Below, one piece after another: positions 7,248 to 16,249 of a stretch of 64,000 nt of DNA. The first letter of the stretch is position 1, and each line of letters opens with the position of its first letter. The stretch is from an uncultured Actinomycetota bacterium. Its GTDB lineage: Bacteria > Actinomycetota > Humimicrobiia > Humimicrobiales > Humimicrobiaceae. A program made the translations under genes and the position numbers. Below the pieces are notes generated by a model, which worked only from the letters and a program-made list of their open reading frames with translations, was not told the origin of the DNA and did not search any database. The stretch spans positions 3,502 to 67,501 of the forward strand of contig CAZQQX010000002.1 in NCBI GenBank assembly GCA_964595565.1. The letters run 5' to 3'.

Positions 7248-7985
7248 TTACAAATTTAAATTATACATTTTATTTAACGCGTCTTTTGCAGCATTTTGCT
7301 CAGAATTCTTTTTGCTCTTACCCCTGCCTTTACCAACAACCTTATCTTCAATCATTACTACGGAATAAAATGATTTATTATGGTCGGGCCCCTCGGACTT
7401 ATCCAGCCGATATATTACAAGCTTTGAATAATCTGCCTGGATAACTTCCTGAAGATAGGTTTTATAATCTATAATTTCAGGGGTTCTGATACGTTCACTA
7501 ATTTTTCCTTTATATCTTTTCAAAACCCAATTCGAAGTGAAATCTATTCCTCTATCAATAAAAATAGCACCAATTAAAGCTTCCATACTATTGGCCAGAA
7601 TAGATGCTTTTTTTCTACCCTTGCACAATTCTTCATTCTCACTCAGAAGCACCTGTTCATCCACTTTAATATCCCTGGCTATTTGAAACAGAGTTTTCCT
7701 GTTAACCAGCACAGACCTTATTTTTGCCATCCTGCCTTCAGAAAAATGGCCATACTTTTTATATAAATAGGAGGTAATTATAAAAGAAAGCACGCTGTCT
7801 CCAAGAAATTCCAATTGCTCATTTCCTCTTGATTTAATATTTTCCTGATGAGCATAAGACCTGTGTGTTAGACTCTGTACATATATTTTTAAATCTCCGG
7901 GAATAATTCCAAGACCTTTTAGCCAGCTTTTTATTCTCTTTTCCAGGGTATCTGTATCATCATTCATTAAAAAGAAAATCGCCAC
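7248..7985 (-). CDS. rnc: ribonuclease III
   Basis: 245 aa; HRSY...NEQLEFLGDSVL RNase III signature and C-terminal dsRBD. Confidence 0.9.
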   Translation of the reverse strand: MAIFFLMNDDTDTLEKRIKSWLKGLGIIPGDLKIYVQSLTHRSYAHQENIKSRGNEQLEFLGDSVLSFIITSYLYKKYGHFSEGRMAKIRSVLVNRKTLFQIARDIKVDEQVLLSENEELCKGRKKASILANSMEALIGAIFIDRGIDFTSNWVLKRYKGKISERIRTPEIIDYKTYLQEVIQADYSKLVIYRLDKSEGPDHNKSFYSVVMIEDKVVGKGRGKSKKNSEQNAAKDALNKMYNLNL

Positions 7986-8020: not shown

Positions 8021-8263
8021 TTATTTTTTGGAATGAGAATCAATATAATCCAGCGCATCCTTTACTGTAACAATTTTTTCAGCATCCTCGTCGCTTATTT
8101 CTATTTCAAACTTATCCTCAAATGCCATAATAAGTTCGACCAGGTCAAGTGAATCGGCTCCCAGATCGTCAACGAATTTACCTTCAGCCTTAATATCCTC
8201 TTCTTTAACACCCAGTACTTCAACTAAAACTTCTTTAAGTTTGTCAAAATTTTCCATCCTCAC
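8021..8263 (-). CDS. acpP: acyl carrier protein
   Basis: 80 aa; [11 protein letters not shown] phosphopantetheine-attachment motif. Confidence 0.9.
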
Positions 8264-8299
8264 TCCTTTTGTATTTTTTACTTTTTCTATTTTTTTATC

Positions 8300-9340
8300 T
8301 TACCTTTTATAATTTACCCTGTTTATCTCTTCGCTTATTTTACCGGTAAGATCTGATTCCAGACTTTCTATGGCCACTTTTACCGCATTCTTAATTGCTT
8401 TTGCCCTTGAACTGCCATGAGAAATTATTACCGGCCTGTTAAGCCCCAGAAGCTGTGCACCCCCGTACTCTTCATAATCAAATTTTTCTTTCATTTTTAC
8501 CAGTGAAGATTTAACACCAAGGGACGAAATTTTTGTTATAACACTTGAGGTCAGGATATTCTTTATTTCCCTGAAAAAAAACCCCGCCAAGCCTTCAATT
8601 AATTTCAATATTACATTTCCCACGAAACCGTCACAAACCGCTACATCTGTAACACCTTCAAAAAGACTCCTGCCCTCTACATTCCCGATAAAATTAATAC
8701 CCGGATAGTCCTTAAGTAGTTCATGGCTCTCAACTGTTACCTCGTTTCCTTTCTTTTCTTCTTCTCCTATATTAACCAGAGCTACTCTCGGGTTCTTTAC
8801 TCCCAGGATGTTTTCGGAATACACTTTGCCCATAATGGCAAACTGCTTTAAAAATAATGGCCTGCAATCCGCATTGGCTCCTGCATCAATCAATACCACT
8901 TTTTTCTCGTCTAAAGGTATTACCACAGCAATAGCCGGCCTGATTACACTTTTTATTCTTCTTATGTTAAAAAGGCAGCAGGCCATAACCGCGCCTGTGT
9001 TACCGGCAGAAATAAAGGTGCTTTTATCCTCTCCGGATACAAACTTTGAGCCTATAAATATTGATGATTTCTTTTTCTTCCTTAATACTTCTGAAGGGGA
9101 TTCATTCATACCCACTTCCTGCGAGCTGGGCATAATATCCATACCGTTCAGATTCATGCCGTTTAATTCTGCTATCTTCTTAATCTTATCTACACTACCT
9201 ACCAGTTTGATATTTACCCCGTAAATTTCTTTTGCCTCAAGCGCACCCTTTATAATTTCGCCGGGAGCAAAATCTCCCCCCATAGCATCTATAACAATTG
9301 AATAATTATTTGAAAAGACTTCTCCCATAATAGGTTTCAA
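8300..9340 (-). CDS. plsX: phosphate acyltransferase PlsX
   Basis: 346 aa; IVIDAMGGDFAPGEIIKGA N-terminus typical of PlsX. Confidence 0.9.
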   Translation of the reverse strand: MKPIMGEVFSNNYSIVIDAMGGDFAPGEIIKGALEAKEIYGVNIKLVGSVDKIKKIAELNGMNLNGMDIMPSSQEVGMNESPSEVLRKKKKSSIFIGSKFVSGEDKSTFISAGNTGAVMACCLFNIRRIKSVIRPAIAVVIPLDEKKVVLIDAGANADCRPLFLKQFAIMGKVYSENILGVKNPRVALVNIGEEEKKGNEVTVESHELLKDYPGINFIGNVEGRSLFEGVTDVAVCDGFVGNVILKLIEGLAGFFFREIKNILTSSVITKISSLGVKSSLVKMKEKFDYEEYGGAQLLGLNRPVIISHGSSRAKAIKNAVKVAIESLESDLTGKISEEINRVNYKR

Positions 9341-9342
9341 AT

Positions 9343-10410
9343 TTAATTATTTTTTGATATCTCAATTAACTTATTTATATCTATATGTTCTCTTGCCACT
9401 TCAATTATTTTATCAATCTTCTTAATTTCATGGAACCTGACATGTCCAATAATTTCTCCAACTTTTTCAACTGCTGTTAACGTATCAAAATTGACCAGAA
9501 TCATCGGCACGCCCAGCTCCTCCGCTCTTCCCAGGACAATAGTACTCGGCTGAAAGTTGCCTGTAAGTATCATGCATTTAGTATTGGTTTCCAGAGCAGC
9601 AAGCTGAACATCTGCCCTGTCTCCACCGGTTATTACAGCTTTATTGGCTTTTCTTCTGAAAAATTTTAAAGCCTGTTCCTGTCCCATGGCGCCAACCATA
9701 AATGTTTCCACTAACTCTTCCTTTTTATCCCCGGCGCATATTATCTTACCACCGAGAAAATCAGCCATTTCTTTTATACTTACAGATGATAATATTTTAT
9801 CAGAAGCAACATATCCAATAACTTCAATCTTATTTTTAGTTAAAAATGGGATTATAAGTTCTTCAAGATAATCCATCTGACTTTTAGGAACCCAGTTTAT
9901 AATAACACCGGAAAAATAGTCTTTTAAAAATTGCTTTGCATGGAGAATCTGGTCTACAATTTCGGAATTGTACCTTACTACCATAATAACCCGCGCTCCA
10001 AGCTTTCCGCATATTTTCTTTGCAGATATACCCAGAAAACAACCATCTTCAATGCTTTTCGCGCCTTCCATTATTACAATATCCTTATTTTTCTTTATCC
10101 TTTTATAAGCTCCTTCAATTACATCTATAAATCCTTTAGAAAAATCAGGGTCTTTTAAGCCCTCCCGGTCGTGGAGCTGGGTTAAAACAACCGGGCATAT
10201 ATCTTCAAGTTCGTCTTTCACACTTAAGATATTTGATATATATTTAGCATCCTCATCCGTAGTGATATCTCCTACCCTGGTGGGCAGAGTTCCTACCGGT
10301 TTAATATAACCCACTTTCAAACCTTTCTCACCGAGTAGTTTGCCCACACCCACACACATGGAGCTTTTACCGGAAAAAGGCTGATTAGAAATAAAAAATA
10401 ACGGAACCAT
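9343..10410 (-). CDS. stand-alone phosphotransacetylase N-terminal-like module (BioD-like P-loop domain + DRTGG domain)
   Basis: 355 aa; N-terminal P-loop FSGKSSMCVGVGK (CobQ/BioD/MinD-like); C-terminal ITGGDRADVQLAALE...ILTGN resembles the DRTGG domain; no PTA_PTB catalytic domain; translationally coupled to acd. Confidence 0.55.
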   Translation of the reverse strand: MVPLFFISNQPFSGKSSMCVGVGKLLGEKGLKVGYIKPVGTLPTRVGDITTDEDAKYISNILSVKDELEDICPVVLTQLHDREGLKDPDFSKGFIDVIEGAYKRIKKNKDIVIMEGAKSIEDGCFLGISAKKICGKLGARVIMVVRYNSEIVDQILHAKQFLKDYFSGVIINWVPKSQMDYLEELIIPFLTKNKIEVIGYVASDKILSSVSIKEMADFLGGKIICAGDKKEELVETFMVGAMGQEQALKFFRRKANKAVITGGDRADVQLAALETNTKCMILTGNFQPSTIVLGRAEELGVPMILVNFDTLTAVEKVGEIIGHVRFHEIKKIDKIIEVAREHIDINKLIEISKNN

Positions 10411-10411
10411 A

Positions 10412-12514
10412 CTAACCTCCTATTCTTATTCTTGCATCACCGGCTATAGAACCCTCTCCTGTTTTCTTTACAAACAGCGGATTTATATCCATTTCTATTA
10501 TTTCCGGAAATTCTGTTACCATCTGGGAAACCTTTAGTATAATTTCAATCATACTTCCAACATCTGAAGGTTCTTCACCTCTGATGCCTTCCAGCAGTTT
10601 TATAGTTTTAATTTCCTTAATCATTTCATATGCAGTTTGCCTGCTTAAAGGAGCAATTCTGAAAGAGACATCTTTAAGTGTCTCAACGTATATACCCCCG
10701 AGGCCAAACATAATAACCGGCCCGAATTGAGGGTCCTCACTGACTCCTATAATGGTCTCCTTTTTATCTTCAATAAATTCCTGAACCAGTATTCCCCTGA
10801 TATTAGCATCAGGCATATATCTTTTTACATTAAAAAGAATATTATCATAATTTTCTTCTAACTCTTTTTCATTATATATCCCAATCCTGACACCACCTAC
10901 ATCTGTTTTATGTAAAATATTGGGGGACACTATTTTTAATACAACCGGATATCCTATTTTTTTTGCAATTTCCCCTGCTTCTACAATATCACGTGAGAGC
11001 CCGGCTTCGGGTACCCTTATCCCATATGCCCCAAGAATACCTCTTGCTTCCATTTCCCCAAGTTCCAGCCTTTCATCAGAACGACACTTATCAAATATTT
11101 TTCTAACTTTTTCCTTATCTACACCAAAAGTTTCAACAGGGGAAACCCCTCTTGATTTCCAGTCTACATATTCCATCATAACTTTCAGGGTATCGATAGC
11201 TTCTTCCGGAATAGCAAAATTGGGTATATTTTGATTTGATAAAAATTCTACCGCTTTTCTTACCTCATTTCCTCCTATAAAACTGGTCAGTATTGTTTTA
11301 TCCTTCACATTTCTTTTTGCAACATCAACGATTGCCCTGGCTATTTCTAAAGGCTGTGTCATTCCCTGTGGTGTAAGCAACACTATTACCGCATCAACAT
11401 TGCTGTCTCCCATTACCACCTCGAGAGCCCGTCTGTACCTATCTGCCACTGCATCTCCCAGTAAATCTACAGGATTATAAAAGTTTGCTGCCCCGGGTAA
11501 AAATTCTTTTAAACTCTCTATGGTCTCTGTCCTCAGAGTGGACATTGTTATATTATTTTTTTCACATGCGTCAGTAGCCATTATACCCGGACCACCTGCA
11601 TTTGTTATTATTGCAACTTTTTTACCTTTAGGCAATGGTTGATATGAAAGAGCAACGGCATAATTAAAAAAATCTTTTACGGTATTTGCTCTTATGATAC
11701 CTGCCTGCTTAAAAGCAGACTCATAAGCTTTTGCAGAACCGGCAAGTGTGCCGGTATGAGACGATACTGCTCTTGCTCCTGCGTCTGTATTACCTGATTT
11801 AATTATGATTATTGGCTTTTTTTTAGAGACTCTGGAAGATATTTTAATAAACTCTCTTCCATTTTTTACACCTTCAATATATCCTGTTATAACCGTGGTT
11901 TCTTTCTCGCGTTCCCATTCATTGATAATGTCATTTTCCGAAATATCTGCTTTATTACCCAGCGAAACGAATTTGGAGAACCCTATGTTGCCTGTTTTAG
12001 CCCAATCAAGGACAGAAGTACCAAGTGCACCGGATTGGGATAAGAATCCTATTTTACCTCCCGGGGGTATACTTGTTGAAAATGTTGCATTCAGGGGACA
12101 GTTGTTATCTATAACTCCAAGACAATTAGGACCCAGTATTCTAATACTATATTTTCTGGCTATTTCCATCAGCCGGCTTTCTCTCTTCATGCCTTTCACT
12201 CCTGCTTCCTTGAAACCTGCTGATATAATAATAGACCATTTTACATTTTTCTTTGAACAATCCTCAAGAACCCGGCATACATACCGGGCGGGAATAGCCA
12301 TTAAAGCAAGGTCAATATCTGAGGGAATTTCTAAAACTGATGGATAGCACTTAATACCTTTTATTTTATCTGCATTTGGATTGACCGGGAATAATTTTCC
12401 TTTAAATCCCGAGTTTATTATATTCTCGAGTATTATATTACCTACTTTCCCTTTTTCCCTTGAGGCTCCAATTAATGCTATGGAACAAGGACAAAAAAAA
12501 TTCCCTGACCTCAA
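10412..12514 (-). CDS. acd: acetyl-CoA synthetase (ADP-forming), fused alpha/beta (NDP-forming acyl-CoA synthetase family)
   Basis: 700 aa; N-terminal CoA-binding Rossmann (IALIGASREKGKVG), succinyl-CoA-synthetase-like ligase domain, C-terminal ATP-grasp (GYPVVLKIVSPNILHKTDVGGVRIGI). Confidence 0.8.
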   Translation of the reverse strand: MRSGNFFCPCSIALIGASREKGKVGNIILENIINSGFKGKLFPVNPNADKIKGIKCYPSVLEIPSDIDLALMAIPARYVCRVLEDCSKKNVKWSIIISAGFKEAGVKGMKRESRLMEIARKYSIRILGPNCLGVIDNNCPLNATFSTSIPPGGKIGFLSQSGALGTSVLDWAKTGNIGFSKFVSLGNKADISENDIINEWEREKETTVITGYIEGVKNGREFIKISSRVSKKKPIIIIKSGNTDAGARAVSSHTGTLAGSAKAYESAFKQAGIIRANTVKDFFNYAVALSYQPLPKGKKVAIITNAGGPGIMATDACEKNNITMSTLRTETIESLKEFLPGAANFYNPVDLLGDAVADRYRRALEVVMGDSNVDAVIVLLTPQGMTQPLEIARAIVDVAKRNVKDKTILTSFIGGNEVRKAVEFLSNQNIPNFAIPEEAIDTLKVMMEYVDWKSRGVSPVETFGVDKEKVRKIFDKCRSDERLELGEMEARGILGAYGIRVPEAGLSRDIVEAGEIAKKIGYPVVLKIVSPNILHKTDVGGVRIGIYNEKELEENYDNILFNVKRYMPDANIRGILVQEFIEDKKETIIGVSEDPQFGPVIMFGLGGIYVETLKDVSFRIAPLSRQTAYEMIKEIKTIKLLEGIRGEEPSDVGSMIEIILKVSQMVTEFPEIIEMDINPLFVKKTGEGSIAGDARIRIGG

Positions 12515-12547
12515 ATCAAAACCTCCAATCCTGACTTCAACTCACTT

Positions 12548-12763
12548 CTATTTACTGGCTTCTTTTTTTTCTTTCTTTTTGCCCTTATCCTCAAAAATTA
12601 TTATTTCATTTTCAGAATAATAGCCGCAATTCTCACAGACTCTGTGAGAAACTTTTTTGCTGTGACATCTCGGACACTCAACAATGTTTAACAATTTCAA
12701 CTTCTGATGAGTCCTTCGTTTATTTCTTTTGGACTTTGATGTTTTTCCTTTTGGAACTGCCAA
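12548..12763 (-). CDS. rpmF: 50S ribosomal protein L32
   Basis: 71 aa; MAVPKGKTSKSKRNKRRTH...C..C..C..C zinc-ribbon L32. Confidence 0.9.
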   Translation of the reverse strand: MAVPKGKTSKSKRNKRRTHQKLKLLNIVECPRCHSKKVSHRVCENCGYYSENEIIIFEDKGKKKEKKEASK

Positions 12764-12886
12764 TTCTGCTTCCTCCTGTTAAAATATCTTGTTACAAACT
12801 TGTTATTAATCTACACAGGTATATAAATATATCATAAAATGATTATTATTCAACAAATTTACCAATCACCAATTTTTTCAAAACCA

Positions 12887-14494: not shown

Positions 14495-16249
14495 TTATTC
14501 TATTGAAAAAATGTAGGGATACAGAGGCTGCCCGCCTTTGTGTATCTCAATATCTATTTTAGAAAAATATTGTTTAATTTTCTTTGTTATTTTCTCAATA
14601 TCCTCTTTAACTGCATCTTTTCCTGTATAGAAAGTAATAACTTCTTCCTTTGAATCAGTAATATCCCTCACCAGGTCTATGGTCGCATCTACTACATTAT
14701 CTGAAATTACTCTTATGTTCCCATTGGATAAACCAATATATTCACCCTTTTTTATTTTACCCACCATAAGATTAGCATCTCTTACTGCTCTGGTTATCTC
14801 TCCTTCCCTGGTTCTTCTTGCTGCCTCCTCCATATTATTCATATTCTCTTCAATACCTGCCTCGGGGTTATAATTCAGAACAGCAGATATGCCCGCGGGT
14901 ATAGTTCTTGTTGGCACCACATAAATATTTTTTTCTTTTATAATCTTTTTGGTTTGATTTGCAGTAAGAATTATATTTTTATTATTTGGAAATATAATAA
15001 CATCTGTAGCATCCAGACTGTTTACAGCCTTTGCTATATCATATGCTGACGGGTTCATACTCTGCCCCCCGCTCACAATAATATCAACACCTATGCTCTT
15101 AAATATGCCTTCCAATCCATCTCCATTCGCTATAGCAAGCAGGGCTGCTTTTCTCACATCTGCCTTTCTTTCCTCTGGTTCTTCTATGCCCACCTCTTCT
15201 TTTCGCTGGTCCTCCATGTTACTAATCTCAATGTCATGCAGGGTACCTTCTCTTAAAGCTGTTTTTAAAACTTTATTTGGATAGTTGGTATGAACATGTA
15301 TTTTAACTATATTCTTATTACCCACCACCATTGCACTATCTCCGTAACTTTCAATTCTCTCTCTCAATCTTTCTATATTTATTCTATCGCCCTTTACCAT
15401 AACCTGGGTACAATAAATATACTTAATCTCGTAGGTGCGCTTTACCTCTTTCAAATTATCCATATCATTTTCTGAAATATCCTTTTTATACCCATCAGAA
15501 TTATTCTCTTCTGGTGTTTTCCTATTCTTACCATTATTACAGCCTTTTCCCCCGGCCATAGAATATGCTTTCCTGGTTTTATCTGTTTTTAATTCCAGTT
15601 GATTATCTACACTCCCGATTATAGTAAGGGCTTTTTTAATACCGATAATTATATCAAGAAGACCCCGGGCTCCGGCATCCACCACACCTGCTTTCTTTAA
15701 TACCGGCAGAAGGAAAGTTGATCTCTCGACGGATTTCTCGGCTTCAAAAATAATCTCATCCAGAAAATCTATTACCCTCATTTTAAAGATTTTATTATTT
15801 AAACCTTCAACAAAATTCCCGATATCTTTTATGGTAGTAAGCATGGTACCTTCAGTAGGGTCCTGAACTGAGCTGTAAGCCAGATCTTTCGATGATTTCA
15901 GGGCTCTTCTAATTAACCCGGGGTTAAAGCTATTATCTTCAATAAATACATCACAAAAACCTTTAATTATTTGAGATAGTATAACCCCTGAATTCCCCCT
16001 GGCTCCCATTAATGCTCCGAAAGAAGCTTTTTCCAGAACGTTTCTAACAGAAAAATCTTTAACCTTTAAGAGCTCCTCTCTAACAGATTTCAAAGTTAGA
16101 AGCATATTGGTACCTGTATCACCGTCAGGTACCGGGAACACATTTAAGTTATTAATTTTATTTTCATTTTCTTTAAAATTATCAATTACGGTATCAATAA
16201 GTATTTTTAAATCCCCATCATTTATTCCATCAAACATAATATCACTCAT
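14495..16249 (-). CDS. yloV: DAK2-domain protein YloV / fatty-acid kinase FakA-like
   Basis: 584 aa; N-terminal Dak2 motif (VPDGDTGTNM), C-terminal DegV-like/FakA extension; divergent from rpmB as in Bacillus. Confidence 0.85.
   Translation of the reverse strand: MSDIMFDGINDGDLKILIDTVIDNFKENENKINNLNVFPVPDGDTGTNMLLTLKSVREELLKVKDFSVRNVLEKASFGALMGARGNSGVILSQIIKGFCDVFIEDNSFNPGLIRRALKSSKDLAYSSVQDPTEGTMLTTIKDIGNFVEGLNNKIFKMRVIDFLDEIIFEAEKSVERSTFLLPVLKKAGVVDAGARGLLDIIIGIKKALTIIGSVDNQLELKTDKTRKAYSMAGGKGCNNGKNRKTPEENNSDGYKKDISENDMDNLKEVKRTYEIKYIYCTQVMVKGDRINIERLRERIESYGDSAMVVGNKNIVKIHVHTNYPNKVLKTALREGTLHDIEISNMEDQRKEEVGIEEPEERKADVRKAALLAIANGDGLEGIFKSIGVDIIVSGGQSMNPSAYDIAKAVNSLDATDVIIFPNNKNIILTANQTKKIIKEKNIYVVPTRTIPAGISAVLNYNPEAGIEENMNNMEEAARRTREGEITRAVRDANLMVGKIKKGEYIGLSNGNIRVISDNVVDATIDLVRDITDSKEEVITFYTGKDAVKEDIEKITKKIKQYFSKIDIEIHKGGQPLYPYIFSIE

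Follow-up and report, generated by a model that had tools for sequence, protein, structure and literature searches.

The acd and ptaN genes between rpmF and plsX

We analysed a 64-kb stretch of contig CAZQQX010000002.1 from an uncultured Actinomycetota bacterium of the Humimicrobiaceae (class Humimicrobiia, UBA1414 in GTDB; the window, to which all coordinates refer), focusing on two neighbouring genes, acd and ptaN, which encode a nucleoside diphosphate (NDP)-forming acyl/acetyl-CoA synthetase and a stand-alone protein resembling the N-terminal half of the phosphate acetyltransferase Pta of E. coli. The genes are arranged on the minus strand in the order coaD, a DivIVA-like gene of 155 amino acids (aa), rpmF, acd, ptaN, plsX, acpP, rnc, smc, ftsY and ffh (Table 1). 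The stop codon of acd (TAG, 10414-10412) is separated by a single nucleotide (nt) from the ATG of ptaN at 10410, and a GGAGG motif lies within the final acd codons. The start of plsX follows 2-14 nt past the ptaN stop, with the gene call of the contig taking the ATG at 9328; acpP comes directly after plsX without fabH, fabD or fabG between them, and rnc directly after acpP without an intervening fabF. The original prediction had described this cluster as devoid of fab genes and as containing a 700-aa NDP-forming acetyl-CoA synthetase that is tightly coupled to a 355-aa P-loop and DRTGG protein, all of which was confirmed by open reading frames (ORFs), domain searches, Pfam lists and blastp. 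No minus-strand terminator was detected at any gene junction from rpmF to smc, the sole minus-strand match in this stretch being located inside plsX, and promoter-like matches occurred at chance level; the operon structure is therefore suggested by the spacing of the genes only.

Acd matches the Pfam families CoA_binding, Succ_CoA_lig, Ligase_CoA_2 and ATP-grasp_5 (E 6e-15 to 3e-80), which together cover residues 11-698, and it contains all subdomains of the NDP-forming acyl-CoA synthetase superfamily, including the phosphohistidine-loop CoA-ligase part. It scores above the cutoff of the model for the alpha part of acetate-CoA ligase (TIGR02717, 586.2 bits, cutoff 567.15) and below the cutoffs of NF045494, NF045493 and NF045492. 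The ADP-forming acyl-CoA synthetases (ACDs) of Ca. Korarchaeum (PDB 4XYL) and N. maritimus (4-hydroxybutyrate-CoA ligase, PDB 8WZU) are its closest known counterparts; the match to 8WZU runs end to end (E 7.5e-181), includes the SHTG histidine loop and has the same fused alpha-beta order. Both conserved histidines, the presumed phosphorylated residues, are present in the window enzyme, H253 of the alpha part (SSHTG) being invariant in 63/63 orthologs and H535 of the ATP-grasp part being retained in 61/63. No description of a partner protein for the solved enzymes was found in the literature searched. For the window enzyme, the most likely reaction is predicted to be acetyl-CoA + ADP + Pi <-> acetate + ATP + CoA. 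Merino et al. reported that UBA1414/Humimicrobiia genomes contain neither pta nor ackA but in most cases possess acd (PMC7325909), from which we conclude that Acd represents the route of this clade from acetyl-CoA to acetate and ATP. The window itself encodes no homolog of AckA or of the catalytic domain of Pta, as judged from its Pfam lists and from blastp searches with E. coli AckA and the C-terminal part of Pta (E <= 1e-3).

PtaN consists of a BioD-like P-loop domain (residues ~1-205; AAA_26, 9e-18) and a DRTGG domain (residues ~206-330; DRTGG, 1e-29). No other domain was detected within its 355 residues, and the catalytic PTA_PTB domain is missing; the Pta model NF004167 is matched at profile positions 5-370 of 708 (2e-33) with 115.7 bits against a cutoff of 418. 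Profile comparison by hhalign aligned PtaN with residues 1-391 of E. coli Pta over 338 columns (probability 99.3%) and with E. coli BioD (95.6%). An AlphaFold (AF2) model of PtaN (predicted local distance difference test score, pLDDT, 84.5) was used for Foldseek searches, in which the C-terminal half retrieved the DRTGG protein AF1212 (2IOJ; template modelling score, TM, 0.85) and the N-terminal half dethiobiotin synthetases (TM ~0.7). The model also matched the crystal structure of the N-terminal domain of E. coli Pta (7T85), so that the likeness to the regulatory half of Pta that had originally been proposed is supported by both profile and fold comparisons.

Among 215 family members, G14 (97%), K15 (95%), S/T16 (88%), K37 (96%), D54 (95%) and N172 (94%) are highly conserved, whereas the position aligned with BioD E115 is less so (69%). 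These residues align with the Gly-Lys-Thr of the BioD P-loop, the lysine of its KP motif, D54, E115 and the asparagine of GWVAN. E. coli Pta carries a leucine in place of the P-loop lysine (K15) and a threonine in place of D54. Since the nucleotide-binding residues of the BioD type are conserved in the free-standing protein, PtaN seems equipped to bind a nucleotide, in contrast to the domain that is fused in E. coli Pta.

Altogether, 412 cluster representatives of the PtaN family were obtained at E <= 1e-30, and 120 close homologs carry the same Pfam pair of AAA_26 and DRTGG. Of the 150 best representatives, most measure 340-370 aa and align end to end, with a few shorter fragments among them. 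Database entries for PtaN homologs (P0012, P0007, P0030 and others) are named "Phosphate acetyltransferase" or "phosphotransacetylase family protein". Functional work on the free-standing protein was not found in literature searches on DRTGG in combination with enzymes of the ADP-forming type, on AF1212/2IOJ or on COG0857.

Conservation and genomic context of the acd-ptaN pair

A scan of species-representative genomes with an alignment of 12 PtaN sequences yielded at least 587 stretches encoding relatives, and the analysis covered the 80 top-ranking loci. Sixty-seven loci extend far enough upstream to be informative, and in 64 of them acd immediately precedes ptaN on the same strand. Most of the 71 related loci in which Acd is encoded have a gap of -4 to +7 nt between the two genes. 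The pair occurs in at least seven phylum-level groups, including Actinomycetota, Chloroflexota (Anaerolineae and others), Planctomycetia, Clostridia, Methylomirabilota/NC10, Armatimonadota and Poribacteria; the actinomycete loci are Humimicrobiia-, Coriobacteriia/Anaerosomatales-, Geothermincolia- and Acidimicrobiia-like. No third neighbour is conserved across phyla, and enolase alone recurs. The pairwise identities of Acd and PtaN co-vary (r = 0.88 overall and 0.85 for the non-actinobacterial loci, with 0/2000 Mantel permutations reaching the observed value), which fits with inheritance as a unit. We regard acd-ptaN as an ancient and widespread two-gene unit.

In 8-10 Anaerolineae loci (L035:3698-4981 and others), enolase is the next gene downstream on the same strand, which in Chloroflexota connects the pair with lower glycolysis and not with lipid genes. 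In anaerobic Actinomycetota, the pair comes immediately after rpmF; Humimicrobiia-, Coriobacteriia-, Geothermincolia- and Acidimicrobiia-like loci all show rpmF next to acd.

Related proteins of other organisms also lie next to acetate-forming enzymes. In Archaeoglobus fulgidus, AF_1212 (2IOJ) shares 42% identity with the DRTGG domain of PtaN (E 8e-28) and, to judge from consecutive locus tags, adjoins the ADP-forming acetate-CoA ligase AF_1211, one of the two acetate-CoA ligases of this archaeon. Thus AF_1211/AF_1212 appears to be a pair similar to acd-ptaN, although AF_1212 (139 aa) comprises the DRTGG domain only and is devoid of the BioD-like P-loop half. In Desulfovibrio vulgaris, the stand-alone AAA and DRTGG protein DVU3031, which has no PTA_PTB domain, is encoded in an operon for the conversion of acetyl-CoA to acetate (pta-ackA, lactate oxidation) (PMC4481167). 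The recurring context of PtaN homologs is therefore the step from acetyl-CoA to acetate rather than lipid synthesis.

The surroundings of the pair differ between lineages. In 20 low-GC, Humimicrobiia-like loci, the PtaN of which is 51-85% identical to that of the window, the order is rpmF-acd-ptaN-plsX-acpP-rnc without fab genes. In 11 loci of sister Actinomycetota lineages (42-49% identity), it is rpmF-acd-ptaN-plsX-fabH-fabK-fabD-fabG-acpP-(fabK)-fabF-rnc, and nine Geothermincolia/Acidimicrobiia-like loci carry rpmF-acd-ptaN-rnc without plsX. A further 28 loci from other phyla contain acd-ptaN without lipid neighbours. Compared with the rpmF-plsX-fabH-fabD-fabG-acpP-fabF cluster of E. coli and Bacillus, the backbone of rpmF, plsX and acpP is preserved in the clade of the window, but acd and ptaN are inserted between rpmF and plsX, and the cluster contains no fab gene. 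The fab genes were also absent from the Pfam lists of the source contig, which cover window positions 1 to ~62160, and a blastp comparison of every ORF in the window with E. coli FabH, FabD, FabG and FabF gave nothing at E <= 1e-3; the last large ORF of the window encodes a semialdehyde dehydrogenase. The original prediction held that the pair replaces fabD and fabG. This could not be upheld, since acd and ptaN are located upstream of plsX rather than between plsX and acpP, and already occupy this position in the genomes with a complete fab cluster. The simplest history, as reconstructed from the gene orders, is that fabH-fabK-fabD-fabG and fabF would have been deleted from the locus in the ancestor of the low-GC, Humimicrobiia-like clade.

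Possible roles of PtaN

On balance, we lean towards the reading that PtaN serves Acd in trans as a subunit that binds a nucleotide and has a regulatory or scaffolding role, that the two genes form an ancient unit and that the fab genes were lost separately in this clade. PtaN, with a nucleotide bound at its intact P-loop, would regulate Acd and/or promote its oligomerisation, thereby gating the only known acetate- and ATP-forming step of the clade. The homologous N-terminal module of class IIa Pta, which shares the same BioD-like P-loop and DRTGG architecture over its full length and is likewise associated with an enzyme that takes acetyl-CoA toward acetate and ATP, is needed for oligomerisation and full activity and mediates the effects of NADH and pyruvate (PMC12724200, PMC4481167). 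The role envisaged for PtaN in trans would mirror this job in cis. Work by Campos-Bermudez et al. from 2010 is said to have identified ATP and phosphoenolpyruvate (PEP) as further effectors of class IIa Pta. Unlike the module of E. coli and Salmonella Pta (7T85), PtaN is free-standing, is encoded beside Acd in a clade without Pta and AckA and retains the P-loop lysine and D54 that were lost in E. coli Pta. We infer a physical interaction with Acd, a ligand and a regulatory effect on the enzyme from these similarities and from the conserved coupling of the two genes.

Several observations weigh against this assignment. Fusions of PtaN to Acd, which would have provided a Rosetta-stone clue, or indeed to any enzyme were absent among the best 150 cluster representatives. 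The co-variation of Acd and PtaN identities is equally expected from a shared species history alone. In three loci (L027, L028 and L078), ptaN is found without an adjacent acd, with the key residues intact in all of them: L027 (7568-10108) and L028, both Humimicrobiia-related, have the order rpmF-ptaN-plsX with acd cleanly missing, an intact ptaN and a gap of 136 nt between rpmF and ptaN, while L078:6800-9065 (Anaerolineae) harbors two tandem ptaN paralogs. Archaeal ACDs, AF1211 among them, are to our knowledge active when produced by themselves and hence do not require a partner for catalysis. DVU3031 adjoins pta-ackA and not acd, is often absent from the operon, and was reported as uninvolved in, and judged dispensable for, lactate oxidation (PMC4481167). 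Finally, the nearest solved relative of the window Acd is a 4-hydroxybutyrate-CoA ligase, and the assignment of acetate as the substrate is predicted.

This last point leads to the alternative that the synthetase does not form acetate but activates another acid toward its CoA ester, with PtaN tuning that activity. Examples would be 4-hydroxybutyrate or acids of short or branched chain that serve FabH as primers in the ancestral cluster. The best NCBIfam and PDB matches are indeed to ADP-forming 4-hydroxybutyrate-CoA ligase (NF045493, 723 bits; 8WZU), and acd lies two genes upstream of fabH in the ancestral arrangement. We nevertheless regard this alternative as improbable, given that the NF045493 score is far under the cutoff of 1300 whereas that of TIGR02717 is passed, that the clade is devoid of Pta and AckA and is described as dependent on acd for acetate and ATP (PMC7325909), and that the pair adjoins enolase or unrelated genes in other phyla. 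An unlikely possibility to a similar degree is that PtaN is an independent BioD-like, ATP-dependent enzyme, e.g. a carboxylate-activating ligase or a kinase, the gene of which would be co-transcribed with acd just because the two belong to highly expressed central metabolism. The conserved set of BioD-type catalytic positions (K15, S/T16, K37, D54, E115, N172), the fold similarity to dethiobiotin synthetases and the persistence of ptaN in the three loci without adjacent acd are in line with such an enzyme. PtaN resembles BioD in the fold of its N-terminal half and in the residues at the P-loop, K37, D54, E115 and N175 positions, but differs in its additional DRTGG domain, in the absence of a biotin-gene context and in a TIGR00347 bioD score (27.8) that is far under the cutoff of 83.3. 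Moreover, the adjacency to acd with near-zero spacing is held across phyla while all other neighbours change, and the DRTGG half is otherwise known from regulatory contexts only (Pta, CBS-pyrophosphatase). Still less probable, in our view, is that PtaN partners PlsX instead of Acd, so that ptaN-plsX would represent a split, class-II-Pta-like acyl-phosphate-forming enzyme, the N-module of which regulates the exchange between acyl-ACP and acyl-phosphate. PlsX and the catalytic domain of Pta share a fold superfamily, and the weak matches of PlsX to phosphate butyryltransferase models are consistent with a Pta/Ptb-like fold; in addition, plsX starts immediately after ptaN in the window, is its direct downstream neighbour in 31 of the 80 loci and stays with ptaN in L027 and L028, where acd has been lost. 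On the other hand, this adjacency is confined to Actinomycetota, nine actinobacterial loci have acd-ptaN-rnc without plsX, the 28 loci of other phyla retain acd without a nearby plsX, and the archaeal and Desulfovibrio homologs adjoin acetate enzymes, not PlsX.

Lipid synthesis offers another explanation, namely that of the original prediction, according to which the pair took the place of fabD and fabG, lipids are made from exogenous fatty acids via FakA/FakB, PlsX and the acyl carrier protein (ACP), and acetate and ATP formation is tied to the ACP/PlsX node. We give it very little credence. It agrees with the absence of fab genes from the window and from the interval between plsX, acpP and rnc in the 20 related genomes, and with the retention of well conserved PlsX, ACP and FakA-like proteins, all of which are encoded in the window. 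The pair, however, coexists with a complete fab cluster in the 11 sister loci. A FakA-like gene is indeed present nearby, as had been noted, but it also lies upstream in the fab-bearing relatives and therefore says nothing specific about lipid supply or the use of exogenous fatty acids. The families DegV/FakB, PlsY and PlsC are not among the Pfam families of the window, a result that applies to the window only. A published KEGG table (PMC7325909) assigns accA, accC and accD to a relative, RBG_19FT_COMBO_36_27 (GCA_001767735), the PtaN of which is 79% identical to that of the window; the table as stored lists acc genes and no fatty-acid modules. These genes suggest malonyl-CoA formation and therefore represent a mild argument against a complete loss of fatty-acid synthesis. 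The proposed functional link to the ACP/PlsX node is likewise unsupported, being positional and restricted to one phylum, with nine loci without plsX and 28 without lipid neighbours.

An extension of the Acd-subunit reading, which we consider possible but doubtful, is that PtaN corresponds to a functional, nucleotide-binding, ancestor-like form of the Pta N-domain, which would serve as a portable sensor of energy charge or metabolites and dock in trans on acyl-phosphate-handling enzymes, with Acd as its main target and, in Actinomycetota, possibly also PlsX. If this holds true, ADP-forming acetyl-CoA synthetases would gain an allosteric subunit of a kind never described before.

As far as we know, no regulation is ascribed to ADP-forming acetyl-CoA synthetases, which are seen as self-sufficient and which catalyse the last ATP-yielding step of fermentation and acetogenesis in many uncultured anaerobes. 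PtaN is a concrete and testable candidate for the regulation of Acd: its gene is conserved beside acd in different bacterial phyla and, as it seems, in Archaeoglobus, and the protein is homologous to the module that renders Pta allosteric, yet has an intact nucleotide site. The naming of PtaN homologs matters for genome annotation as well: since a protein without the catalytic domain is called phosphate acetyltransferase in clades reported to be devoid of Pta, acetate pathways are likely to be mis-annotated, and automated reconstructions can be misled into assigning Pta-AckA to such organisms. The Humimicrobiia, in turn, deserve checks for an unusual lipid supply, given that fab genes have been deleted from their rpmF-plsX-acpP cluster throughout the clade. 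Both the widespread, unstudied acd-ptaN pair and the clade-wide loss of fab genes from a canonical cluster are leads rather than a new kind of system.

Further features of the window

The positions of the genes discussed above and of their neighbours are compiled in Table 1.

Table 1 Features of the rpmF-acd-ptaN-plsX region and further genes of the window.
Feature	Product or description	Position	Strand	Evidence
rpmF	Ribosomal protein L32, 71 aa	12548..12763	-	TIGR01031, 82 bits (cutoff 22.6)
acd	Fused alpha-beta NDP(ADP)-forming acyl/acetyl-CoA synthetase, 700 aa	10412..12514	-	Pfam and TIGR02717
acd/ptaN junction	GGAGG in final acd codons, TAG, 1 nt, ATG	10408..10420	-	Sequence reading
ptaN	Stand-alone Pta-N-like P-loop and DRTGG protein, 355 aa	9343..10410	-	AAA_26 and DRTGG
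plsX	Acyl-ACP:phosphate acyltransferase	8300..9340	-	TIGR00182, 340 bits (cutoff 243)
acpP	Acyl carrier protein	8021..8263	-	TIGR00517, 93 bits (cutoff 70)
rnc	RNase III	7248..7985	-	Pfam Ribonuclease_3 and dsrm
smc	SMC protein, 774 aa	4901..7225	-	Both SMC head halves
FakA-like gene		14495..16249	-	Dak2, FakA-like_M and FakA-like_C
DivIVA-like gene	Coiled-coil protein, 155 aa	12887..13354	-	Weak DivIVA/Wag31-like match, 27 bits (cutoff 260)
Serpin gene	Bacterial serpin, 335 aa	36957..37964	-

The window has a G+C content of about 35%, and nearly all of its genes are located on the minus strand, with the exception of a short block at ~40-44.5 kb that includes an ATP-binding cassette (ABC) transporter. 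The GC skew is uniformly and strongly negative (cumulative -7.3 over 64 kb).

Upstream of rpmF, the 155-aa coiled-coil gene is kept between coaD and rpmF across actinobacterial classes. A yceD (DUF177) gene is not found upstream of rpmF in the window, where the gap (12764..12886) measures just 123 nt, while YceD occupies this position in more distant actinobacterial relatives (e.g. L031:5064-5585). Downstream, the smc product of the window has no detectable SMC_hinge domain. Its ortholog in a Geothermincolia-like locus (L036:10844-14326) comprises 1161 aa and includes the hinge, and the short form is kept in all Humimicrobiia-like loci with a median length of 776 aa. The serpin gene adjoins a gene pair encoding a sigma factor and an RsgI_N anti-sigma factor.

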